This document shows positions 11,852 to 27,834 of a stretch of DNA of 64,000 bases, piece after piece. The notes below the pieces were generated by a model. The model searched no databases. It saw nothing but the letters and a program-made list of their open reading frames with translations, and was not told the DNA's origin. A program made the position numbers and the translations under genes. Positions within the stretch are counted from its first letter, which is position 1. Each line of letters starts with the position of its first letter. This DNA comes from Candidatus Latescibacterota bacterium (GTDB lineage Bacteria; Latescibacterota; UBA2968; GCA-2709665): positions 4,032,001 through 4,096,000 of the forward strand of contig OZ241917.1 of the NCBI GenBank assembly GCA_965203805.1, in the 5' to 3' direction.

Positions 11852-11953
11852 TTACTCTCTTACGATTGTCTCCAATTTCCCAATCAGACGTTAAAGATCG
11901 CTTGCGTACATAAGCAGATCCACAAGCCTTACACCGTCATCACGCCTGCTCAT
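11852..11953 (-). pseudogene. HEPN (HepT/DUF86) toxin remnant, internally deleted and with an internal stop
   Basis: Reads MSRRDDGVRLVDLLMYAS-DL*RLIGKLETIVRE*: a DUF86-like N-terminus joined directly to a DUF86-like C-terminal helix; overlaps the MNT stop. Confidence 0.7.
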
Positions 11954-12151
11954 AGACCGCCTCCGCTGAACTGAGTATTTCCTTCCGAGGCAGCCAGTTC
12001 GGGTTGCTTTCGACCCCTCTGAAGGTGTGAAGGTCGACTTTTCTCCCGTATATCACCGACAACTCATCCTGCATGGCGATGAACTTCAGTCCTGGCGTCT
12101 TTCCCGGCTCGAATTCCACGATCACGTCCACGTCGCTCCCCGGCGTGAAAA
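11940..12151 (-). pseudogene. 5'-truncated MntA-like minimal nucleotidyltransferase
   Basis: SDVDVIVEFEPGKTPGL...GRKVDL; clearly homologous to 20203-20517 but lacks the N-terminal LFGS motif. Confidence 0.85.
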
Positions 12152-12309
12152 TGAGGCGCAGCGGCAGCAAGCTTGAGCATGAATCAATCGTTAATCCTCT
12201 AATTGGCGCGCCGGCGCAACTGTCCTAATATCCCAATCCAGTTGTGACGCGAACTCCCTGCGTAGCCGGATCATGCCTGAAGACCGAGTTATGGCACCGA
12301 TTTTGTTGC

Positions 12310-13472
12310 TAGTGTTTCGTCCCAGGAGTAACTTGCAAAAATAGTTCACTTGCCATAGATTCCCTATAGCGAAAGGAGGAATCTATGGCCAGGGGACGTC
12401 CGTTAGCGCCACTGAGTATTGGGGATGAGGTTCGTGCGCAACTGGAAACCATTTCCCGTTCAAGAAGCATGTCGCACAGTCTTGTGTGCCGGGCGAAGAT
12501 CGTTCTGATGAGTGATCAAGGGCTGTCGAATCAGCAGATCGGACGACAGCTTGGTCTGTCGGGAGCCACAGTCGGGAAGTGGCGCCGTCGGTTTTTAGAA
12601 CAAGGTCTGATGGGGCTTTATGATGAATTGCGCCCCGGGGGGCCCCGCTCGATCAGCGATGAGCGCATCGCCTCGCTGATTCATGCAACGCTCAAAGACA
12701 AGCCGTCGGGAGCCACCCACTGGACCTGCCGCTCTCTGGCAGCCCAGACGCAACTGTCCAAGTCCACGGTTCAGCGCGTGTGGAAAGCGTTTGGTCTACA
12801 GCCGCACCGGCAAAAACACTTCAAGCTGTCCAATGATCCGTTCTTTGTCGAGAAGGTACGTGACATTGTCGGACTGTATCTGAACCCTCCCGACAACGCG
12901 ATGGTATTATGCGTTGACGAAAAGAGTCAGATCCAGGCATTGGAGCGAACGCAGCCGATATTGCCTTTGGGGTTGGGCTATGTGGAAGGGGTCACCCACA
13001 ATTATATCCGGCACGGCACCACGACCTTGTTCGCCGCGCTGGAGGTCGCTTCCGGCAAGGTGCTGGCCCAATGCAAACCCCGACATCGACACCAGGAATT
13101 TTTACAATTCCTCAAATATATCGACCAAAACGTCCCGAAGGACCTTGACATTCATCTCGTCGTCGACAACTACGCCACGCACAAGCACGAAAAAATCAAA
13201 CGCTGGATCGCAGCCAGGCCCCGATACCACGTTCACTATACACCGACCTATGCGTCCTGGCTCAACCAGGTCGAGATCTGGTTCGGCATCATTACCCAGA
13301 AAGCCATCCGACGCGGGACCTTCAAAAAGGTGAAAGACCTCATCGCCAACATTCAGGATTTCACCAACCATTATAACGCCAACTCACGACCGTTCGTCTG
13401 GACCGCCACCGCAGAATCGATCCTTGACAAGATCACCAGACTTTTTGAACTAATTCATGGGACAAGACACTA
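12310..13472 (+). mobile_element. IS630-family insertion sequence (copy 1)
   Basis: Ends CTAGTGTTTCGTCCCA / TGGGACAAGACACTAG; TA duplicated at 12310-11 and 13471-72 within a CTAG target. Confidence 0.95.
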
Positions 13473-13473
13473 G
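12385..13473 (+). CDS. IS630-family DDE transposase
   Basis: 362 aa; HTH N-terminus, VDEKSQIQ, VDNYATH and WLNQVEIWF motifs; the stop codon is supplied by the target-site TAG. Confidence 0.95.
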   Translation: MARGRPLAPLSIGDEVRAQLETISRSRSMSHSLVCRAKIVLMSDQGLSNQQIGRQLGLSGATVGKWRRRFLEQGLMGLYDELRPGGPRSISDERIASLIHATLKDKPSGATHWTCRSLAAQTQLSKSTVQRVWKAFGLQPHRQKHFKLSNDPFFVEKVRDIVGLYLNPPDNAMVLCVDEKSQIQALERTQPILPLGLGYVEGVTHNYIRHGTTTLFAALEVASGKVLAQCKPRHRHQEFLQFLKYIDQNVPKDLDIHLVVDNYATHKHEKIKRWIAARPRYHVHYTPTYASWLNQVEIWFGIITQKAIRRGTFKKVKDLIANIQDFTNHYNANSRPFVWTATAESILDKITRLFELIHGTRH

Positions 13474-13870
13474 CTTCTCGCATGGATTTTTCGACCGTCT
13501 TAGTTCGCCTACGTGCGGGTTTGCGACTGGAAACGCGTAACGATGAGGTCGTGTAAGCCTTGCGGGTGAAAGATAGTATTCGTTTTACATCCGTCTCGGT
13601 TGGCAAAGTTCGTCCACCTTTTGTCCAAGGAGTGAGAGTTGCTATCGGATTGTCGTGTAGCATCTCACTCCAAATTCGATCCTGATGTGCGGTTCTCGAA
13701 CCATGATGCGGAATCTTAAAGACCGACGCTTTGCAATTCGGCCTTTCTGTTGAGGCGAGTATTTCCAACCAGCCCGGTCCCTCAAGATCGGAACCGAGCA
13801 GTATCGCTGTATTGCCAATTTTGACCAATAAGACAACCGCAACTTCGTTGGGGGTCAAACTAGTACTTAC

Positions 13871-13899
13871 TTGACAAAAAAAGCGAAATAATATATCTT
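13871..13899 (+). promoter_or_regulatory. Sigma70-like transposase promoter
   Basis: TTGACA-17 bp-TATCTT just inside the left IS end; IS copy 1 has the analogous TTGCAA-17-TAGATT at 12333-12361. Confidence 0.55.
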
Positions 13900-13930
13900 G
13901 TGCTCATAGGGAATCGATCTCAGTTCAACT

Positions 13931-15016
13931 GTGGAGAGGAGACCGCCTATGAGCCGCCCCGCCGTGTTGATCACGTTGCGTGACGAGGAAAAAGAGACGC
14001 TGTTGAGTTGGACACGTTCAGGCAAGACGCAACACCGTTATGTGCTGCGCGCCCGGATTGTTCTTTCAGCGTCCCAGGGCGATGCGAACCGGGACATCGC
14101 CAGGGATCTGGGAACGCGCGAGGCCACGGTGTGCAAGTGGCGCCGGCGCTTTCACGAGTCGGGTCTTTCCGGGTTGCAGGACAAGGCGAGATCGGGCAAG
14201 CCTGCCAAGTACGACCAGTCAAGCGAAAAGCGCATTTTGGAGGCCTTGGACGATGCCCCGCCCAAGGGCTATGGAAACTGGACCGGTCCGTTGTTGGCCG
14301 ACAAGCTGGGAATTTCTGTCCACTATGTCTGGCAGGTCTTGCGCAACCACGGCATTTCGCTGGCCAGAAGGCGCAGCTGGTGTATCAGCACCGATCCGGA
14401 ATTTGCCACCAAGGCCGCAGCCATCGTGGGGTTGTATCTGGAACCTCCCAAAAATGCGATTGTCTTGTGCGTCGACGAAAAGCCCGCGATTCAGGCGTTG
14501 GAAAGGGTACAGGGATGGCTCAAGCTGCCCAACGGCAAGGCCGTAACCGGCTTTAACCACGAATACAAGAGAAACGGCACCACCACGTTATTCGCTGCAT
14601 TGAACGTCGCCACCGGCCTCGTCAAGGCCGGGCATTACAAAAGGCGCAAACGACGCCAGTTTCTGAGCTTTATGAACGAACTTGTCGCCGAATACCCCGA
14701 TCAGGAACTCCACATCATCCTCGACAACCTGAACACCCACAAGCCCAAGAATGACCGCTGGCTGCCGCGCCATCCCAATGTCCACTTCTACTACACCCCC
14801 ACCCACGCATCCTGGCTCAACCAGATCGAAATCTGGTTCAGCATCCTGTGGAGAAGCGCGCTCAAAGGCGGCTCCTTCACCTCGATTCGAGACTTACGCA
14901 CCGCCATCAATCACTTCATTGACGCCTACAACGAGAACGCACATCCCTTCGAGTGGAAATCCACAAAAGTCCGACCCAAAGCCCTTGAAGAAAAATACTC
15001 TAATTTAACCAATTAA
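13931..15016 (+). CDS. IS630-family DDE transposase
   Basis: VDEKPAIQ, LDNLNTH and WLNQIEIWF motifs. Confidence 0.95.
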   Translation: MERRPPMSRPAVLITLRDEEKETLLSWTRSGKTQHRYVLRARIVLSASQGDANRDIARDLGTREATVCKWRRRFHESGLSGLQDKARSGKPAKYDQSSEKRILEALDDAPPKGYGNWTGPLLADKLGISVHYVWQVLRNHGISLARRRSWCISTDPEFATKAAAIVGLYLEPPKNAIVLCVDEKPAIQALERVQGWLKLPNGKAVTGFNHEYKRNGTTTLFAALNVATGLVKAGHYKRRKRRQFLSFMNELVAEYPDQELHIILDNLNTHKPKNDRWLPRHPNVHFYYTPTHASWLNQIEIWFSILWRSALKGGSFTSIRDLRTAINHFIDAYNENAHPFEWKSTKVRPKALEEKYSNLTN

Positions 15017-15584
15017 GTACTAGGTGTTCTCCTTTTAGTCTCACCAACTTGAGGCCGAATTCGGTCTATTTCGCGCAAAAAGCTATCAATTTCCTTATCG
15101 GATGGCGAGAGGGACCAAAACTCGCAATTGTCAAAACTAAAGATTCTGCGATTTGCTATTGCAAATACCGGCCTGGTTGATCTCTTTTCGAGAAGCGATC
15201 GGACCCTATAGATTTCCTTCATTCCAGAATTTACTTTGGACATCGGACGGCTTGCTACTGAGTCCATCATCGCGAGGAATTCTTCTGCTCGAAGGGCGGA
15301 TGCACAGCAGAAATGTGCACTGGTGCAGACATCGACCAATTCTCCCATACCTCGAATGTGGTCGTCATGCCAATGTGAAGCGACTATTAGTCGAACGACA
15401 TCAGCAGGGTTTAGCCCAAGGCCCTGAAAATACGCCAGCGCGACTGGCCGCGAATCCGCATCAATGCAGGAATCGACAATTACCCAACTTCCGTTTCCTA
15501 TGTGAAGTAAGATGCATTCTCCGTATCCAGGCCCTATTAGGGTTACTTCCAATACATCTTGTTCGGGTAGTTCGTCAGATGCGG

Positions 15585-16196
15585 TCAATCTGCCCATAAC
15601 TGAGCGGTCCTCTTAGCCCGTTGGTCGGCCTCCGTTATTTCTTGTTTGGTAACCACTGGAAGATCGCGAAAGACGATCCGGGAAACGCGCTGCTTAGTAC
15701 CGCTAGCGGATCGCTCGTAGCCGATGACCCAGCGAAAAATGCTACCAAGACGTATGCTTTTACGTTCGTCGTTCGTGATCTCGGAAAACGGAATAACAGC
15801 TTCTTCCTCTTCATAGGTGGAGCTTTTGGTTAGATCCAATAGCCGTACCGTAAAGTCCTCCGTTCCCTTCAAGATTACGTACCCTTCCCATTCCTGGAGT
15901 AAATGGAAACTGGTGCTGGACACGGTTCTCGAAACCGTCGCTAAATCAGGAAAATCGATTACATTGCGTAAATCGGAACCGATTTTGGCCGATGTCAAAG
16001 GATCCTCAATTGTGGCCTCCGCGACATCAGTGTCATGCGTTTGAGGGATGTGAGGCTGTTGTAATGTCGCTGTGATCCGATCCGCATATCCTTCCCGGAG
16101 CAATTGGTTAGGTGCGCTGGCTTCGCTGGAATTGTCGCTGAGGCTAGATGTATTCTGTAGTCTATCGACTACAGGGGCGGCTGCTGAATCTGACAT
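15585..16196 (-). CDS. Hypothetical protein with a low-complexity N-terminus and a compact beta-rich C-terminal domain
   Basis: 203 aa; ATG overlaps the upstream stop (TAATG) and the end overlaps the MBL start by 13 nt; C-domain LQEWEGYV...FTVRLLDL...GSIFRWVIGY. Confidence 0.75.
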   Translation of the reverse strand: MSDSAAAPVVDRLQNTSSLSDNSSEASAPNQLLREGYADRITATLQQPHIPQTHDTDVAEATIEDPLTSAKIGSDLRNVIDFPDLATVSRTVSSTSFHLLQEWEGYVILKGTEDFTVRLLDLTKSSTYEEEEAVIPFSEITNDERKSIRLGSIFRWVIGYERSASGTKQRVSRIVFRDLPVVTKQEITEADQRAKRTAQLWAD

Positions 16197-16894
16197 TATT
16201 GTTCCTCCGTCAAGGACATAATGTGATCGATGATGTCGTCTGCACGGCGCAATGAGTCGTCGAATTTCTCCTCAAGTAACTCAACGATCTTCCTGGTTTG
16301 CATCTCCGGTTCCACATCTCCCACAACGTAATGGTCATTCACCCCAACGTAGACCCCGAGATTCTCGTGCTCGACCCTGTTGGATGGCTCCACCTTTACG
16401 TTAATTTGCCCGCCAACCGGTCTATTACAAGGATCTACCTGTCTCATCGTAAGGGATACCATTCCACCGCGCTCTCCATCCAAGTCAAGTTTTCTCGCCC
16501 AATCCCCCCAAGGCTCGACAGGTGCGAGTAATCTTCCTAGTTGGTCTCTCTGTTTATGGTCCAGCACGCAAAAGTGGACATTACGGTTAATACCGACGGT
16601 CGTTAGCGGTGTATGGTGAAGGTGTTCACGAAATATTCGGACAGCGAGATCTCGAATCCGAACATATGGGCACTGGGTCGTATCCATTCGCATGCGTTCT
16701 GGAACGACTTGCATGTTAAGCCAATCCGCGTTAAAGCTCGTAAATTGAGGATGGGCAATGTTCGTTTCCGCAATTTCGATTATTCTTCTAGGTAAAAGTT
16801 GATGCCATCCGAACCAGGCGGGTGTAAATATCACAGGATTGAAACGGCCAAGCAAAACGAGCGAAACCCCGGCGATTTCGGGTTCAATTCTCAT
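16196..16894 (-). CDS. Hypothetical protein, first gene of the three-gene module
   Basis: 232 aa; RBS AGGAG upstream; LVLLGRFNPVIFTPAWF and VGINRNVHF motifs. Confidence 0.8.
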   Translation of the reverse strand: MRIEPEIAGVSLVLLGRFNPVIFTPAWFGWHQLLPRRIIEIAETNIAHPQFTSFNADWLNMQVVPERMRMDTTQCPYVRIRDLAVRIFREHLHHTPLTTVGINRNVHFCVLDHKQRDQLGRLLAPVEPWGDWARKLDLDGERGGMVSLTMRQVDPCNRPVGGQINVKVEPSNRVEHENLGVYVGVNDHYVVGDVEPEMQTRKIVELLEEKFDDSLRRADDIIDHIMSLTEEQ

Positions 16895-16998: not shown

Positions 16999-19900
16999 TT
17001 ATGTATAAGGATTAAATCCAAAGTCTGCAAGCATCCTGTCTATGTAGTCGTATTGCTCGTTTCGCTCCTGAAATAAGATATGCGCCCCGGCAAACTGCTC
17101 CCTATCCCAATTCCCGTTTTCGTATCGCATGGAAAGGTCGTCGTAAGGTGTTGCGGAAACGATAAACGAATCGAGCGTGACGCCTTTGCGATCACTTCTG
17201 TCAGCAATCTCTCTGGCCAATTGTGGCAGCTTTTCGTGAAGCTGCGCCTTTTCGTCATTGCAATATGCAAGTGCATGTAGCATTCCGTGCGGCTCGACGA
17301 AGACGATGTGTTGTTTCCTTCCTTGTTTGACCCAAAGGATGAAGTCCGGATAGAAGCCGCTAGATTCAAAAAATCCTACGCCCGCGCCACGGCTCTGGTT
17401 TCGCAATAGAAACACCTCCCGGCCGGACAGCCTACCGTCACTCTCCTTCTTCCAGTAGTCCTTCAAGTCCTTTACAAACTGTTTTTCACTCTTGTTTAAG
17501 GCGGGGGGAGTGGTCTTGACGTCATCTTCCTCGCTGTATTCTATCAGTAGAGGTTGGTAGAGGTGCCGATCGAAGTGAAGGCGAGGTAACTCGTCCGTTT
17601 CCTTCTCGTATAGTCTCTCGCAGTCGTCGATCAGCCGTTCGATGTTCTCCATTAAGGAGACTTTGGAGCGTTTGACGCTGACAACGTACCGGCCCCTACC
17701 CTCGGATTCACGACCAAAGCTCAGATTCGGATCGCGCTCGTCGAGGGTCTGGTAAACCATCTGATTCGACTCCCATCGGTCCCGGTGGACGCGGTAGAAG
17801 GAGTCGACGTATTTCCGCAGAATTGAAGTTACTGCACTTTGAAGCCGTTCTACATCCTCAAATGACTGAGGTCGTACTACCGATTCATCGGCGATCAGGC
17901 TATAGCGTTCACCGTCCGCAACTATCCGACGCGGTGCGTCGGGCAATACGCACAGATTGCTCAGGCCTTTCTGTTCCGTATACTCAATCAGGTCGAGATA
18001 GGCCCGCTGCCAATCCACCAGATCAAGGCTGTCCTGTGGGAGCGCCCGCTCGTGACCAACATGCGCGTCGGACGATAATACTCCGTCTTCGCTGCTTTCC
18101 AGCGACTGAACCTTTAGCGACAGGTCGACCCGTACCTTCCTTACTTCGGAATCCGGCTCCAGGAGATGACTTTGAGTCTTGACGAATTCGCCATCGTCTT
18201 GTATCCGCGGCACGACGAGTCCGGCCGCTAGCAGTTTCTTATCGGGGCGAACAAAAAGCGGTAGCTCATCGTAACCTTCGGTGTCGACGCCCTCCCTCTC
18301 AAGGTACTTCCTGAAGTCGGCCATATAGTTGGCGCGAACCGCGAAGATGTTGAGCGTTTCGAGAAGCCGGATGTGACTCGGGTGCGTACCGTCCAATGCC
18401 GCGCTCCGCTTCAGGCTTGCGTCCATGCCTCGCAAGCGTACCCCGCGACCGAATAATTGGATGATTTCCGAACCTTCCCTCTGCCCGATTTTCAAAAGTC
18501 CCATATTCGAAACGCGCCAGGAATTCCATCCTTCCATGAATTTCTTCGCGCCAATCAGTACCTCGATAGTGGTATGCAGATCATTGATGCTATCGAAAAG
18601 CGATCCGGACAGAGCGTCATCTTCCAGCGTTATTCCAGTGTCTGCATCCTCCACCAGATTTTTGAATGAGCTAACGTCGCCTATGTAGATTAGCCCGAAA
18701 TAGTCCTCGGCGCCACTCGCTTTCAGGCCCAATTCGCCTTCGGCGCCCCGAATTGTGCATAAGTGTAGACCACCCCCCACTTGGGTATGGAATACCATTT
18801 TAAGTATGTCCTGGTAAATCACTTCCGACGAGCGTTCAGTTGCCCGCAGAAACGGGAATTTCCCCGAGAACACATCTTGACCGTACTGTGTTACGAGCCC
18901 ACTCTCGCCGTTAATGATTCGATGAATGGCATTGGTCGTCCACCGGCGCTCACTCAAGACCAAATGCAGGAACCGTGCCACTGTCAGGACGTCACTGGAT
19001 TTCTCCTTGTTCTTTTTGTACACAGCATTTACTGTGCTGCCTACAAAGACTGACAGCGGTCTCTCAAGGTCGTAAGGGCGCAATTCGTCGGCCGACTGAG
19101 CAAAAACACATTGCTGCTCGTAGAAGGACAGCAAGTTGCCGAGCAATAATGTCTCCGTCTCCTCGGAGGTCGTCTCCTCGACGAGATTGAGTATTCGAAA
19201 ATCCTTGCCGAAACCGTCTCCGTGAAAATACCTGTACGAGTAATCGAAGACGATGGCCTTACCATATTCCCTGGTAAGTTCGTCGTTGCCAACTGCTTTC
19301 AGTGCCTGACCAAACGTCGCGCTGTATTCCAATGTAAAGCCACTTTCGCCAAGCTCGTCACGGTAGCGACGCCACACGTCGCCACCCGAACCCTTGTGGC
19401 CCTCATCGACGAAAATCAGATTGTTGCCTTCAAACGCTTCGACGGGTACACTGACACCTCCGCCACGCTTCTGTTCAACCAATTTGGTGATTTCGATGAT
19501 TCTAACTTCGTCGTGGTGAGAGAATGGATCGCTCTCCGTGAGGGTAAAGCGGCTGCATGCAATGCCCGATGCACGCATCTCGCTTTGATGTTGCTCGCTC
19601 AATCCCTCGTTAGGCGTAATCAGCAGGATATTGTCCAGCGGCTGGTCGTTGTAGTGCCTGAACTGGTGATAGTTAAGGTGCATGATCAGGGTTTTGCCGC
19701 TCCCGGTTGCCATCCAGAAAGCCAGTTTCTTCAGGTCGGTTTCACAGAATTTCTCACCTTTATTTCTACCAGCGGTGAATGAGTTCAGGGAACTAAGCAT
19801 CTCACCACGTTGGTTGAAGTATTGATAGAGGAAGACTTCCACGTAGAGAGCCGCGAGGTACTGAAAGTACCGTAGCGTAATCGGTTCGGACCGTCGGGCA

Positions 19901-20148
19901 TTCATGTCATTCAAGTGCTTTCGGATATTCTGGTCGTACTGCAACAGTGTATCTGGAGCAATCTTCACCGCGTCCCCACGGCTGACCAATCGGTGAAAAA
20001 CATGACTGCGTCCATCGGGATCGAACCCCTCGGCCGTCTGCTTCATATCGCAAAGCAGGTCGCGGTTTTGCTCGTAGCCGAATTGATGGTTTAACCATGC
20101 CAATAGTACCAGGCGCTGATCCAGGTCGGTATTCTGTGCCGGTGGCAT
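16999..20148 (-). CDS. res: Type III restriction endonuclease subunit Res
   Basis: 1049 aa; MATGSGKT (Walker A), VDEGH, SAT, FMEGWN, QLFGRGVR, and C-terminal FYPDFILW..VFVEPHG PD-(D/E)xK-type nuclease motif. Confidence 0.92.
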   Translation of the reverse strand: MPPAQNTDLDQRLVLLAWLNHQFGYEQNRDLLCDMKQTAEGFDPDGRSHVFHRLVSRGDAVKIAPDTLLQYDQNIRKHLNDMNARRSEPITLRYFQYLAALYVEVFLYQYFNQRGEMLSSLNSFTAGRNKGEKFCETDLKKLAFWMATGSGKTLIMHLNYHQFRHYNDQPLDNILLITPNEGLSEQHQSEMRASGIACSRFTLTESDPFSHHDEVRIIEITKLVEQKRGGGVSVPVEAFEGNNLIFVDEGHKGSGGDVWRRYRDELGESGFTLEYSATFGQALKAVGNDELTREYGKAIVFDYSYRYFHGDGFGKDFRILNLVEETTSEETETLLLGNLLSFYEQQCVFAQSADELRPYDLERPLSVFVGSTVNAVYKKNKEKSSDVLTVARFLHLVLSERRWTTNAIHRIINGESGLVTQYGQDVFSGKFPFLRATERSSEVIYQDILKMVFHTQVGGGLHLCTIRGAEGELGLKASGAEDYFGLIYIGDVSSFKNLVEDADTGITLEDDALSGSLFDSINDLHTTIEVLIGAKKFMEGWNSWRVSNMGLLKIGQREGSEIIQLFGRGVRLRGMDASLKRSAALDGTHPSHIRLLETLNIFAVRANYMADFRKYLEREGVDTEGYDELPLFVRPDKKLLAAGLVVPRIQDDGEFVKTQSHLLEPDSEVRKVRVDLSLKVQSLESSEDGVLSSDAHVGHERALPQDSLDLVDWQRAYLDLIEYTEQKGLSNLCVLPDAPRRIVADGERYSLIADESVVRPQSFEDVERLQSAVTSILRKYVDSFYRVHRDRWESNQMVYQTLDERDPNLSFGRESEGRGRYVVSVKRSKVSLMENIERLIDDCERLYEKETDELPRLHFDRHLYQPLLIEYSEEDDVKTTPPALNKSEKQFVKDLKDYWKKESDGRLSGREVFLLRNQSRGAGVGFFESSGFYPDFILWVKQGRKQHIVFVEPHGMLHALAYCNDEKAQLHEKLPQLAREIADRSDRKGVTLDSFIVSATPYDDLSMRYENGNWDREQFAGAHILFQERNEQYDYIDRMLADFGFNPYT

Positions 20149-20150
20149 CT

Positions 20151-20219
20151 CTACGGATCATCCTTCACGTGGGTTTCCAGTTGTTCAATCAGCAGCGGCA
20201 GGTCATCCCGCCTGCTCAT
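20151..20219 (-). pseudogene. HEPN (HepT/DUF86) toxin remnant, in-frame internal deletion (22 aa)
   Basis: MSRRD-DLPLLIEQLETHVKDDP*; overlaps the MNT stop and ends 2 nt before the res start. Confidence 0.75.
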
Positions 20220-20517
20220 AGACGACCTCCACCGAGGTGAGTATATCCTTCCGGAGCAGCCTATTCGGGTTGCTTTCGACGCCCCGGAAGGTGTGTAGAT
20301 CCACTCTTCTCCCGTATATTTCCGACAACTCGTCCTGCATGGTGATGAACTGCAGTCCCGGTGTCTTGCCCGGCTCGAACTCCACGAGTACATCCACGTC
20401 GCTCTCAGACGTGAAGTCGTCGCGCAGCACCGAGCCGAACAGCGCCAGACGCTTGATACCGTTGCGACGGCAGAAGGCGGCGATCTTTTTCTTCGGAATG
20501 TCAATTCTCGTGGTCAT
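20203..20517 (-). CDS. MntA-like minimal nucleotidyltransferase antitoxin
   Basis: 104 aa; LALFGSVLRDDF..ESDVDVLVEF...GRRVDL. Confidence 0.92.
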   Translation of the reverse strand: MTTRIDIPKKKIAAFCRRNGIKRLALFGSVLRDDFTSESDVDVLVEFEPGKTPGLQFITMQDELSEIYGRRVDLHTFRGVESNPNRLLRKDILTSVEVVYEQAG

Positions 20518-23317: not shown

Positions 23318-24070
23318 CTACTTTCTTTCCACGGTTGGCACATCTGATGAGACCGTATGTCCCAAAATAAGGCTTCGAAAGGACGCCATATGCTCCGTCG
23401 CATCACTAACTATACTTCGGTGTTCCGATAACTCTTCTTCGGGCAACAATCGCGCCAATTTTCCCTTCTTGCTTTCCTCCAAAACGGCAATACTGATCGG
23501 CTCGTTTATTCCCCCAGGATTAACTTCACATGCGTGTCGCAATGCCCAAACCGCGGTAAATATACCACCTCGCAAGGTCGGCGGTTCTTCATTCCAAAAT
23601 ATAGATCGGAAAAACGCCAGAAGAGGGTCAAGAATGGGTTGTCCGCTTCCAGCCGCTACCCACCAGTTACCTTCGAGCATCTTAATTTCAGGTTGAAATC
23701 CAGCAGCAGACGGCAGTTCACATAAGGACATTCCGTCCTTGGCCGAAAATGCTACCAGAGCCGAAAAATCCAGCTGCGTAATTCCGGTTTGTTGAAAGTC
23801 GTTTATTCCTGATTGGGAAAGTAATTTTCCGACTTCAATGGCACCTTTTCCCTTAAATTCCTGGCCTCTCCACAATCTTCGAACAACGTCATAGAATCTC
23901 TGGGCATGGCCAACATAACCGGATCCAGCAACGATCACATGATCATCTACGATTTCTATCTTTTTTGTTGGCTGCTCGATTGTGCGGTGCTGTTCGTGGA
24001 CAAACGTCGCAGACCCGTCGGCCCCGATCACCACCCCATCCTTGCATCGAATCCCGATCAATGCAGTCAT
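23318..24070 (-). CDS. Proteasome beta-subunit/HslV-like Ntn threonine hydrolase
   Basis: After Met removal: Thr1, Asp17 (GVVIGAD), KKI (Lys33 equivalent), VAGSG and AAGSG (Ser129-equivalent GSG). Confidence 0.85.
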   Translation of the reverse strand: MTALIGIRCKDGVVIGADGSATFVHEQHRTIEQPTKKIEIVDDHVIVAGSGYVGHAQRFYDVVRRLWRGQEFKGKGAIEVGKLLSQSGINDFQQTGITQLDFSALVAFSAKDGMSLCELPSAAGFQPEIKMLEGNWWVAAGSGQPILDPLLAFFRSIFWNEEPPTLRGGIFTAVWALRHACEVNPGGINEPISIAVLEESKKGKLARLLPEEELSEHRSIVSDATEHMASFRSLILGHTVSSDVPTVERK

Positions 24071-24072
24071 AC

Positions 24073-24528
24073 TTATTCCTGAAAAATGCTGTTTTCACGC
24101 ATATCCGGATACGACTTATAAATCGCGCCTACAAGCTCGGCAAAAGACAAACTCCGTACCCACTCTGACAGTCGTTTCAGATATTTCTGTACGTATTTGG
24201 GCAATTGAGAGAGCTTCTTCTCCCCCTGTATCTGTCCTGCGTAAGTCAGGCAGTACGAGCGACCCGCTATGGTAGCACCCGAGATGTGTTCCGTTATCTG
24301 GACGAGTCCCATTTTCTGAAGGGCTTCAAGTTCCGCATATACGGCCTTATCAAATGGACCGTAGTCATACGGCTCAAACGCAAACTGCTTGCCGTGCATT
24401 TCATCCGCGACATTCTCATCAATCAGGAAAAATAATTTCTGGATTTGTACCGGCTCAAACGTGGCATCCGGCACAGCGGAAAGCCCTGCAAGGACCATCT
24501 TCTGTCGGTGCGAAAGTACGAGTGGCAT
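24073..24528 (-). CDS. SocA/Panacea (DUF4065)-like winged-helix protein
   Basis: PVQIQKLFFL, FEPYDYGPF..VYAELE and YCLT..G pattern; ends 2 nt before the protease start. Confidence 0.7.
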   Translation of the reverse strand: MPLVLSHRQKMVLAGLSAVPDATFEPVQIQKLFFLIDENVADEMHGKQFAFEPYDYGPFDKAVYAELEALQKMGLVQITEHISGATIAGRSYCLTYAGQIQGEKKLSQLPKYVQKYLKRLSEWVRSLSFAELVGAIYKSYPDMRENSIFQE

Positions 24529-24732: not shown

Positions 24733-27700
24733 TCACGCCTCCACTCCTGCGAACATCCGTCGCTTGAACAGGGGATCCAGCGCTTTTGCATTTTGGATAA
24801 AGGAATCACCATTTGCATAAACTGTGTCTGCTCCCTCAGCCAATTTCTGATCAGCCACAAAGTCTTTGTCCCGCTCAAAGTCCGATTTCTCCCACCCATC
24901 GGTTTCGCGCCAAACGACCACGACAGTTCGCCCCTCATGTGTCTGGCCGCTATAGACCAGGTACCGCCGATCGTTGTCGTAATGGACGTGCCGCGTCTGC
25001 ACGTGTAGTCCGATCAGGTAGTTGAAGGTCTCCGGGATATCAGCCAACATTTGTCCCGTCTGTCCATCTGAGCGGATGTTCAGTCGGTAGGAGAACGGTC
25101 TCGCGAGCTTCTCTACGTTCAGCAAGGTGTCGCTATGTCGTGTCTCCCATCGCAGCATGTATTTTAGCAGATAATCATCGAATTGTAGAGCCTGTTGTTG
25201 TGAAACTTCATCGAAGTCTATGTTGTTCAACGCATCCTCGTAGCTTTCAAGACGCGAATATTTCACAATACGAGGTCCGGGCTCGACATCTTGCGGTGTA
25301 ATCCGTAATTTGGGCTTTCCGCCCTTCCATTCTGGTGCAAACGTGACCTTCTTTATCCGTGGAAGCAGAACGGTGTCGAAATATTCACCCATCTCAACAA
25401 GGATGAATTTGCGTTGGCCGCCGTCCTCGCGATTGAGATTAATGACCGCGTGGCCGGTAGTACCGGAGCCGGCAAAATAGTCGATTACGACATCAAATAA
25501 AGTATCCGAAGCTGCACCGATTAACTCCTCATAGAAATTCACCGAATGGCAATATGGGAAATTCGTGAGCCCCATTGCGTCTAGGTCTGTTTTTCCTCGC
25601 TTGGCATCCTGCATCACGGAAGAAATCTGTCTCGTAGATTCAGTTGTCAAGTATCGTTTCTGTCGTGGTTGGGTGCTGTGATCAGGTCCAAAGATAATCT
25701 CGCCGCGCGCATTCATACTCTTTAAGGTCTCGGGTGTACGTGAGAATCCATTAGGCGGCACCGGACAGGGTTTGTGCGTTACAGGATGAACCAAGGGTTC
25801 ATGAAACTTTGGATCAGATCTAGGTTCTGGTGCCCTCAGACTGACACTTTGGTAGATCCTTCCATCCTGATCCAGATACCTGTATGCTTTTTCTCCGCCG
25901 GTGAGCTGTGGATTCCTGTTTACCCAGTTTGCGTATGCCTTTCTTGCTGTTTCCGTAACTCCGCCGCTAGCCTTTATAATGTCTTCTGCTTCATTCAACA
26001 TCATTTGAATCGAATTATTGCGAAGATTAATGGGTTTATCAGTCTTTGCTCTCCAAATGACATATTCATGTTGAATTGCCACGCCTCCGCCAGCTGTCAT
26101 GGGGTTTCTTTTATCCCAAATCAAAGTACCTGCATTGCCAATGTCGAGACTATCCATCAACATGTGGAGTCTTTCGTACTCATTCTCGTCGATATGGCAA
26201 AGGAACAAGCCTTCCTCGCTCAACAGTTCAAGAGCTGTACCAATGCGATTGCTCATCATCGTAAGCCAACTCGAATGCTGGTAGTTATTCTTGTAGAGGA
26301 AGCCGCTTGTCTGAGTGTTATAAGGAGGATCAATGTGTGCGCACTTTATCCGACCATTGTACTTTCTCGACAGAAGATTGAGTGCCTGCCAATTGTCACT
26401 GTGTATCAATACACCGTCAGTTATACTGTCCAGGTCATCAAACGTGCCTAACAGCCGATCTACGAATTCTAGATCGAAGTGTTTCGAATCTAGGACCAGG
26501 GTCGGGTGCTCTGTCAAGTACTGGATACGATTGTCAGTTTTTTCCATTCCAGGGGTGAACAGGTCAGGTTGATCTTCGTCAATAATGTACGAATCTTTCC
26601 ATTCAGTCCACTGAGCGTCGCATTTTGCGATATCAGCGACAAAGTGATCGGCAATGTGCCTTAAGGATATGCAGTAATTGGTTTCGATAACAAACTTCCG
26701 CTTTTCCCAAAGTATTTTTTGGAAGTTCTCAATCTGGTCAAGGAAGTTGATGACCTGACTACCGACAGATCTGATAACCTGCATCATCTGAAACCAACTC
26801 TCGGCTCGTCTTGCGCCTGCCACTTCCATTTGGTCTAGATTAAGCACTTCGTTTTTGAGATAGAAGTCGAGTTCGCGAATGAGAAATGCATTGAGGTTCT
26901 TGTGAATGAAGAAATCCGAGGTGTTCCGCCTCGTGTACTGGAGCAGGTGATGTTCGAAAGAAGAAATGGACTCGCCATCGTTCTTTTGTCGCCTTTCGGC
27001 CAAAAGCGCAGCCACTGCGTCAGGTACATGTTTGAGCAGAACTGGAATCTGAGACACAGCTTCGTTGATGATGGCATCCTGCTGGTTCTTACCACGGTAC
27101 GAGATTTCTTCCCGTTCGGTCAAAGGTCGGAACTCGAATGGAATCTCGAGGCGCTTTGCATTTTCATCCCAAGCAGGCGCCTCCAAAGATGGTACAAAAA
27201 ACCGCCTATCACCCTTGGTATTGTCCCGCTCGACGTCAGCAGCTTTTAGTTTGAAATGCACGCTGATGCCTCGCGAAGCAAAGGCATAGTCTTGAAAGTG
27301 TTCGCCAGTCTTCACATAGTATTGGTCACTGTTCGCCCAATGCAGATGTACTTCTTCGCCGTTGTAAGGAATGGCATACCGATGGCGCTTCGAATATCGT
27401 CGTTTGGATATGAAGTCGCCATCCTGGTAGTACCGGCTAAAGAACGCGTACAGATGGTTGAATATCGCCGCTTCGAGTCCTTTTTGTCCCAAGCCGCCTG
27501 CAGATTTCGCCTTCAACTCCAGGTAGCACTTTCCGAGCGGCGTATTGTGGAACATTTCCGCAAGGTTTCCGTCAGCATCGATGGCGGCGTGGCCAAAAGA
27601 TGCTAGAATCTGCTTTCGGTTTTCCTGGAGCTTTTTCTCGGTCTGCGCTTCCTCGGCGGCGGCGCCCTTCTTTAGTTCTTCATAGACGGTATTCGGCAGG

Positions 27701-27834
27701 CTTTCGATTATAAATCGCTCGATAACGTCCCGCTTGTGATTCATTATGCGATAGATTCCGAAGTCCAGGTCCGCGCAGTCGAACTGGAACAACTCGCGAA
27801 GGAGGTCCTGAAATTTGGCGAGTGGCGTACTCAT
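24733..27834 (-). CDS. mod: Type III RM DNA methyltransferase subunit Mod
   Basis: 1033 aa; HIDPPYNT (motif IV) precedes DYFAGSGTTG (motif I), i.e. beta-class order; DLDFGIYRI N-terminus. Confidence 0.92.
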   Translation of the reverse strand: MSTPLAKFQDLLRELFQFDCADLDFGIYRIMNHKRDVIERFIIESLPNTVYEELKKGAAAEEAQTEKKLQENRKQILASFGHAAIDADGNLAEMFHNTPLGKCYLELKAKSAGGLGQKGLEAAIFNHLYAFFSRYYQDGDFISKRRYSKRHRYAIPYNGEEVHLHWANSDQYYVKTGEHFQDYAFASRGISVHFKLKAADVERDNTKGDRRFFVPSLEAPAWDENAKRLEIPFEFRPLTEREEISYRGKNQQDAIINEAVSQIPVLLKHVPDAVAALLAERRQKNDGESISSFEHHLLQYTRRNTSDFFIHKNLNAFLIRELDFYLKNEVLNLDQMEVAGARRAESWFQMMQVIRSVGSQVINFLDQIENFQKILWEKRKFVIETNYCISLRHIADHFVADIAKCDAQWTEWKDSYIIDEDQPDLFTPGMEKTDNRIQYLTEHPTLVLDSKHFDLEFVDRLLGTFDDLDSITDGVLIHSDNWQALNLLSRKYNGRIKCAHIDPPYNTQTSGFLYKNNYQHSSWLTMMSNRIGTALELLSEEGLFLCHIDENEYERLHMLMDSLDIGNAGTLIWDKRNPMTAGGGVAIQHEYVIWRAKTDKPINLRNNSIQMMLNEAEDIIKASGGVTETARKAYANWVNRNPQLTGGEKAYRYLDQDGRIYQSVSLRAPEPRSDPKFHEPLVHPVTHKPCPVPPNGFSRTPETLKSMNARGEIIFGPDHSTQPRQKRYLTTESTRQISSVMQDAKRGKTDLDAMGLTNFPYCHSVNFYEELIGAASDTLFDVVIDYFAGSGTTGHAVINLNREDGGQRKFILVEMGEYFDTVLLPRIKKVTFAPEWKGGKPKLRITPQDVEPGPRIVKYSRLESYEDALNNIDFDEVSQQQALQFDDYLLKYMLRWETRHSDTLLNVEKLARPFSYRLNIRSDGQTGQMLADIPETFNYLIGLHVQTRHVHYDNDRRYLVYSGQTHEGRTVVVVWRETDGWEKSDFERDKDFVADQKLAEGADTVYANGDSFIQNAKALDPLFKRRMFAGVEA

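Follow-up and report, generated by a model that had tools for sequence, protein, structure and literature searches.

Homology of an Insertion-Split Three-Gene Operon of a Latescibacterota Bacterium to the Anti-Phage System DS-42

Introduction

DS-42, which carries the working identifier PRO1, is an anti-phage system that was found by DefensePredictor (DeWeirdt et al., Science 2026, PMC13092281). Its proteins are given in Tables S6 and S8 as DS-42A (WP_249925928.1), DS-42B (WP_001024069.1), and DS-42C (WP_001198055.1), and Table S8 marks the system as replicated, describes protein 3 as a ComEC-like metallo-beta-lactamase (MBL; cd07731), records a weak CHS5_N match (0.78) for protein 2, and has no domain row for protein 1 (PMC13092281). 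Protection, which is published for the E. coli version, was about 12-fold, against one phage in a panel of 24; the one PRO1 row of Table S7 gives phage Bas1 with a -log efficiency of plating (EOP) of 1.10 and smaller plaques, and the construct MG1655 pCV1-PRO1 is listed in Table S11 (PMC13092281). The name DS-42 has 0 occurrences in the main text of that publication as available, the term MBL was not found in the available portion of the DefensePredictor preprint, and no published DS-42 mechanism was found, although the large supplement of PMC13092281 may hold more. Here we describe an operon at positions 12191 to 16894 of a 64,000-nucleotide stretch of the genome of a Candidatus Latescibacterota bacterium (contig OZ241917.1; referred to as the window), which is almost certainly a distant DS-42 homolog, with its third gene interrupted by a pair of IS630 insertions.

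Results and Discussion

Relationship of the operon to DS-42

Profile comparison tied each of the three genes to its DS-42 counterpart, and the window therefore almost certainly holds a pseudogenized, distant member of this system. Gene 1 matched the enterobacterial DS-42A profile with a probability of 98.0 (hhalign; E 1.9e-13 over 203 columns) and with reciprocal hidden Markov model (HMM) E values of 7.8e-14 and 1.1e-12 at Z=1000. Gene 2 matched DS-42B in the C-terminal domain only (hhalign probability 95.3, E 2e-8, 102 columns; HMM E 1.1e-8 at Z=1000), and the N-terminal halves were not alignable. The MBL gene matched DS-42C with 34% identity over 283 columns (hhalign E 1.7e-38). The genes follow one another in the order A-B-C in one transcriptional unit, as in DS-42. 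The DS-42 proteins matched here are those of a prophage operon of ECOR29, which are the proteins with the three tabulated accessions, and one E. coli allele of gene 1 is labeled "anti-phage protein" in RefSeq. An earlier reading of the sequence (the original prediction) had called the module undescribed and like no recognized system, and had named a match to an already named system as grounds for giving up that claim; the claim is refuted because the operon is homologous gene for gene to DS-42. Neither gene 1 nor gene 2 had a match in Pfam, NCBIfam, or PADLOC 2.0, and PADLOC, whose library is older than DS-42, returned none for the E. coli DS-42A and DS-42B proteins either.

The features of the locus are as follows.

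16196..16894, minus strand: gene 1, DS-42A homolog, 232 amino acids (aa)
15585..16196, minus strand: gene 2, DS-42B homolog, 203 aa
15020..15597, minus strand: MBL gene (DS-42C homolog), piece 1, about codons 1-192, with HxHxDH (PF00753, E 2e-7)
13860..15023, plus strand: IS630-family element B, 1160 bp plus duplicated CTAG (transposase 13931-15016, NF033545, E 7e-77)
13470..13863, minus strand: MBL gene, piece 2, about codons 193-322, with GSD and HHGS (ComEC TIGR00361, E 9e-7, far below the cut-off)
12309..13473, plus strand: IS630-family element A, 1161 bp plus duplicated CTAG (transposase 12385-13473, NF033545, E 2e-81)
12191..12312, minus strand: MBL gene, piece 3, about codons 323-361 and stop (47-86% match to the C terminus of intact homologs)

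In the TAATG at 16196, genes 1 and 2 have one base in common, and the first 13 nucleotides of the MBL gene (15585-15597) also belong to gene 2; these overlaps, and the coordinates and lengths of the coupled genes, had been given correctly in the original prediction, and the gene 1 protein contains the motif LLGRFNPVIFTPAWF. The predicted 361-aa MBL with HxHxDH, GxD, and HHGS motifs is recovered once both IS630 elements are omitted, in a frame that starts at 15597, has the end of its stop codon at 12191, and carries HWHDDH at 75-80, GSD at 215, and HHGS at 244, but it does not exist in the genome as found, where the gene lies in three pieces separated by the two elements. The operon is thus not intact in this genome, and, judging from its sequence, the window's copy of DS-42 is a pseudogenized member that is inactive as it stands.

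Both elements have CTAG flanks and terminal inverted repeats. Six more full copies and one partial copy of element A, and seven more full copies of element B, were found elsewhere in the genome at 99-100% identity, so the insertions in the MBL gene are probably recent. With the copies in the window included, both elements have expanded recently to seven and eight full copies, and they are also close neighbors near 5.187-5.197 Mb and 5.511-5.514 Mb of the same genome. An allele free of insertions is present in two other samples (4 of the 22 listed metagenome runs were compared): a coral metagenome contig that spans the operon skips exactly 1161 and 1160 bases, and sponge metagenome contigs likewise carry neither element. 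Both elements are present in another sample of the window's own organism. RNA contigs of one sample span parts of gene 1 and the insertion-free MBL junction; these are not usable as evidence of transcription.

Conservation, distribution, and lesions of the triad

A search with gene 1 identified 41 genome loci, and gene 2 and the MBL gene were present in the same order in 39 of these; the remaining two stop at a contig edge (L001 and L039). Because the same three genes recur in the same order at 39/41 loci, their association is beyond chance. Of the original prediction, a conserved three-gene anti-phage module that ends in a ComEC-type MBL is supported. When metagenomes were scanned with the MBL as anchor and the best 80 of 388 matches were taken, 48 loci had at least 1600 upstream bases, and both partners, A and B, were present in all 48. 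The triad looks like an obligate unit.

Gene 1 was matched in 29 of 168 genomes of the window's phylum, with a patchy distribution within genera, and triad-bearing records are titled Latescibacterota, Gemmatimonadota, Acidobacteriota, Entotheonella, Bacteroidota, Proteobacteria, and others. Two triads are on plasmids (one of Adhaeribacter and one of Pantoea). The triad is also present in 17 of 5426 E. coli genomes, and at all five E. coli loci that were opened it lies antisense between the antiterminator Q and holin genes of lambdoid prophages; GC content was 33-34%, compared to 51%, at the two loci measured. A profile of the enterobacterial gene 2 retrieved 13 viral contigs, 12 of which have the triad.

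PADLOC matches at E≤1e-25, mostly to restriction genes, were obtained for 10 of 102 neighboring open reading frames, at 7 of 23 metagenome loci that were picked by hand without a control. At metagenome locus L143 (2788-5059) the triad is within a type I restriction-modification operon, between hsdM and hsdR, and at locus L144 (2834-5080) it is flanked by hsdS and hsdR of such an operon and lies on the opposite strand.

The 39 gene 1-anchored loci that remain when the two contig-end loci are omitted include 30 intact triads, 6 in which only the MBL gene is broken, and 3 in which both A and the MBL gene are broken. The MBL gene is thus broken in 9/9 damaged loci, and an intact MBL gene beside a broken partner was found in none of the 39. 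The chance that all six single-gene lesions fall in the MBL gene, given gene length, is 0.009-0.02, uncorrected for kinship or assembly errors. This pattern, the window included, is the trace expected of a toxic effector with protective partners, and it is not proof of one.

Proposed mechanism

Our proposal, which is tentative and which we would place slightly short of an even chance, is that the intact module works as a latent metal-dependent DNase, the MBL, kept in check by A together with B, a labile protein with an OB fold, and set free when a phage infects. The MBL would be the toxic effector and would cut DNA, and A and B would keep it inactive up to the point in a phage infection at which B is removed or displaced. 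Protein B, with its unfolded N-terminal half, would serve as the labile guard and A as a scaffold or sensor, and the outcome would be abortive infection. Stand-alone copies of the B domain in jumbo phages, described below, would be stable mimics that keep the system shut. The pairing of a labile antitoxin with a nuclease in the original prediction gains indirect support from the variable N-terminal half of B, the co-occurrence of the three genes, the extra residues of the MBL, the lesion pattern, and the phage copies.

Latency of the MBL is suggested by the spacing of its motifs. Among solved structures, those nearest to it in sequence are ComEC domains (E 2.6e-12), and the distance from the HxHxDH block to the N-x-x-x-V-L block is 103 positions in the MBL profile compared to 63 residues in two ComEC chains. 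The approximately 40 extra residues are, by sequence spacing only, in the region of the inhibitory loops of defense MBLs. Protease-linked defense MBLs are described, in the available parts of two reports, as DNases blocked by two loops that are not in ComEC (10.1101/2025.09.03.673762; 10.1101/2025.11.14.688446). By this spacing, the insertion would sit at the cleaved-loop region of the trypsin-linked MBLs, and the nearest PADLOC models are protease-linked, RTasMBL and LmuA matching 24/24 family members with best E values of 6e-15 and 1e-16. Both observations would also suit a true zymogen whose inserted loops are cut in trans by a phage or host protease, with A and B as adaptors that present the MBL or sense the protease. 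We regard this as improbable, however, as the operon has no protease gene, no recurrent fourth gene was found among the 30 largest neighbor clusters, and neither of the cleavage motifs described for zymogen MBLs, KSS and IS(G)N, appears in the consensus of the family. Proteases are also not among the 50 fold matches listed for the gene 1 protein or for the gene 2 protein. Matches of the MBL family to 6A-MBL, Avs1a, LmuA-MBL, RTasMBL, and PDC-M48B were all weak, and beta-lactamase names from NCBIfam were generic fold matches far below the cut-off.

Protein B consists of a variable N-terminal half (about residues 1-94), a predicted OB-fold domain (about residues 95-180), and a C-terminal helix. 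The N-terminal half is probably disordered: mean pairwise identity over 26 homologs is 19%, compared to 59% in the C-terminal half, aromatic residues make up 2%, and serine, threonine, and proline make up 30%, compared to 19% in the C-terminal half, in agreement with the S/T/P-rich N-half of the original prediction. This half is nevertheless kept in the metagenome loci (from the best 80 of 388 matches), where the length of the B frame is mostly about 175-225 aa. The C-terminal domain is predicted to have an OB fold, as had been asked of gene 2; its model (pLDDT 87.4) matched the OB domains of IF5A and EF-P, cold-shock domains, and Unr with modest scores (Z 7.1-5.5). OB folds are the majority among the 50 fold matches listed, and no solved structure was found that matches protein B by sequence.

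The same fold leaves room for a different role, which we consider possible though somewhat unlikely. Protein B could be a positive sensor: with A holding it, its OB fold would bind single-stranded DNA or RNA of the phage and then recruit or open the MBL nuclease. In that case the copies found in phages would either act as dominant-negative decoys or have been captured for some other function. Most of the 50 fold matches listed are nucleic-acid-binding OB domains (IF5A, EF-P, cold-shock, and SSB), aromatic and basic residues (F-x-W-x-I-G-Y and an arginine) are conserved in protein B, and obligate co-occurrence fits an activator equally well. However, a sensor does not predict that 0/9 damaged loci have a broken partner beside an intact MBL gene, nor that an unfolded N-terminal half of near-constant length is retained.

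The AlphaFold model of protein A (pLDDT 85.5) is a curved beta-sheet with helices and is TIGR04255-like. The top Atlas cluster is named TIGR04255 (score 0.98), as is the Adhaeribacter homolog in UniRef; 0/24 members of the gene 1 family matched a TIGR04255 profile in NCBIfam at E≤1 (the presence of this model in the library was unchecked), and no literature on TIGR04255 was found. The SecB-like fold raised as a possibility in the original prediction found no support in the 50 fold matches listed for this protein, which do not include SecB. The best matches are to McsB, taurocyamine kinase, and arginine kinase (Z 8.6, 8.3, and 7.5), with root mean square deviations (rmsd) of 3.3-4.0 over about 160 residues, and W27, N103, P125, and N186 are invariant over 92 homologs. 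These three matches and the invariant N103 and N186 could point to a guanido-kinase- or glutamine-synthetase-fold enzyme that makes or transfers a signal, with the MBL as a small-molecule phosphodiesterase rather than a DNase. Guanido kinases bind ATP via several arginines. A kinase is unlikely because no arginine or lysine column of protein A reaches 85% conservation in the 92 homologs and Z scores of 7-8 are the stated background of the tool, and we judge this reading as a whole to be very improbable.

Jumbo phage copies of the B domain

A search of 50,697 phage records with E. coli DS-42B yielded six records, which represent four jumbo phages, CBB, GAP32, Kaldavass, and XbC2, three of which have enterobacterial hosts. 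Three of the phages were opened, and in each of them the matching gene stands alone, encodes 105-113 aa, and lacks the variable N-terminal half; the coordinates are as follows.

L082:3995-4336, stand-alone phage OB gene
L083:2001-2318, stand-alone phage OB gene
L084:2001-2318, stand-alone phage OB gene

The OB gene of CBB is FDG95_gp578. The flanking genes that were compared in CBB and XbC2 have no match to A or the MBL, and no MBL homolog was found in the 50,697 phage records. The Atlas cluster nearest to the B domain is a 103-aa, mostly viral protein (0.93), and K4FB73 of GAP32 was the sole viral structure matched by the model of the window's B at E≤0.001 (E 2.2e-4). In a tree of 46 of 113 sequences (16 chosen and 30 random), rooted on the window's protein, three phage proteins were sister to a clade of enterobacterial DS-42B and related prophage loci (SH-aLRT 99.6 / UFBoot 100), and the same grouping was obtained in a fast tree of all 113 sequences (99.8). 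In all three opened records a DNA methyltransferase gene is located two to three genes upstream of the OB gene, and this neighborhood is plausibly an anti-defense setting.

A stable copy of a labile guard would have the form expected of an anti-defense mimic. Extended in this way, the proposal would make DS-42 a protease-free, guard-type nuclease, in which an auto-inhibited MBL DNase of zymogen lineage is gated by a labile OB protein, and Mimasvirus-type jumbo phages (CBB, GAP32, XbC2, and Kaldavass) would have taken the OB domain from the DS-42B of their hosts, dropped the unfolded half, and put it to use as an anti-defense mimic. We hold this extended version to be doubtful; no literature was found on the jumbo-phage OB protein as a counter-defense against DS-42.

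A number of points tell against the guard mechanism and its extension to phages. Nucleic-acid binding is a commoner function of OB folds than enzyme inhibition. The lesion asymmetry comprises nine loci, many of them related and some possibly assembly errors, and it would also be expected if the largest gene, prone to insertions, were simply lost first; at locus L031, the B frame is shortened to 179 aa, and the locus was scored as intact. The absence of the zymogen cleavage motifs from the MBL consensus belongs here as well. The structural match to K4FB73 is a loose one (TM 0.51, rmsd 9.9), the phage proteins are 31-40% identical to the closest DS-42B and 17-18% identical to the window's B, and AT-rich sequences may attract each other in the 118-column alignment of phage and DS-42B proteins. 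Protection by DS-42 was weak, with 1 row in Table S7 for a panel of 24 phages, there are no DS-42 mutant rows in that table as available (PMC13092281), and no biochemical data on the DS-42 proteins were found in the texts searched.

Genomic neighborhood

The triad is downstream of the following gene, which is outside the module and is separated from gene 1 by 104 bases.

16999..20148, minus strand: type III restriction subunit res (PADLOC REase_III, E 3e-144)

The position next to res in a low-GC island had been noted correctly beforehand; GC content is about 45-57% in the island stretch, compared to about 60% in the flanks, and mod and two Fic genes are in the same island. The mod (24733-27834) and res (16999-20148) genes, both on the minus strand, are kept apart by cargo genes, which comprise a coupled pair, the two Fic genes, one of them SoFic-like (E 8e-52), and, at 20203-20517, a gene for a minimal nucleotidyltransferase. 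The coupled pair (23318-24528, minus strand), located between mod and the Fic genes, encodes an Ntn hydrolase of 250 aa that is proteasome-beta-like (PF00227, E 1.6e-11) and a SocA/DarG-C-like protein of 151 aa (PDC-M19A, E 1.7e-13) and may be a further defense or toxin-antitoxin pair. Directly past the MBL stop, positions 11936-12185 resemble, by eye, a decayed copy of the nucleotidyltransferase gene 20203-20517, and 11936-12149 are also matched, at a second place, by a contig of a coral metagenome run.

Comparison with known systems

The trypsin-MBL modules (Avs1/Avs2, Hachiman-MBL, Lamassu-MBL, and the reverse transcriptase [RT]-associated MBL) resemble the window operon in their ComEC-like MBL, in extra sequence at the inhibitory-loop region, and in weak profile matches. 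They differ in that the window operon has no protease, STAND ATPase, SMC, helicase, or RT, the Avs1a profile scored 19 bits against a cut-off of 420, and the cleavage motifs are not in the DS-42 consensus. The window operon shares with toxin-antitoxin-chaperone systems such as HigBAC and CmdTAC a layout of three parts, in which the middle protein is partly unfolded and one product is probably a nuclease; however, the fold matches listed for the 232-aa gene 1 protein do not include SecB, and the middle protein has a predicted OB fold rather than a recognized antitoxin domain. The effectors of 6A-MBL and Pycsar share the use of an MBL fold in defense, but the 6A-MBL model scored 25 bits against a cut-off of 220, and the window operon has no cyclase gene as in Pycsar. 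Azaca, which had also been a candidate, was dropped because it is listed under nuclease-NTPase systems.

DS-42 itself has the same three genes in the same order, each homologous to its counterpart and of similar size (238/190/363 aa in DS-42 versus 232/203/361 aa in the window). The differences are that identity is only about 16-34%, that the window locus is in a chromosomal restriction island of an environmental bacterium whereas DS-42 occupies the Q-holin slot of a prophage, and that the MBL gene of the window is interrupted by two IS630 elements. DS-42 was already known as a validated anti-phage system, and the locus is itself an ordinary dead copy; its value is as a lead on DS-42, for which the texts searched give one weak phenotype and no mechanism. 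What the comparison adds to DS-42 is a fixed three-gene unit, a predicted OB fold for B, decay that begins with the MBL gene, a hint of a latent nuclease whose operon lacks an activating protease, and a set of four phage genes that are candidate DS-42 inhibitors.

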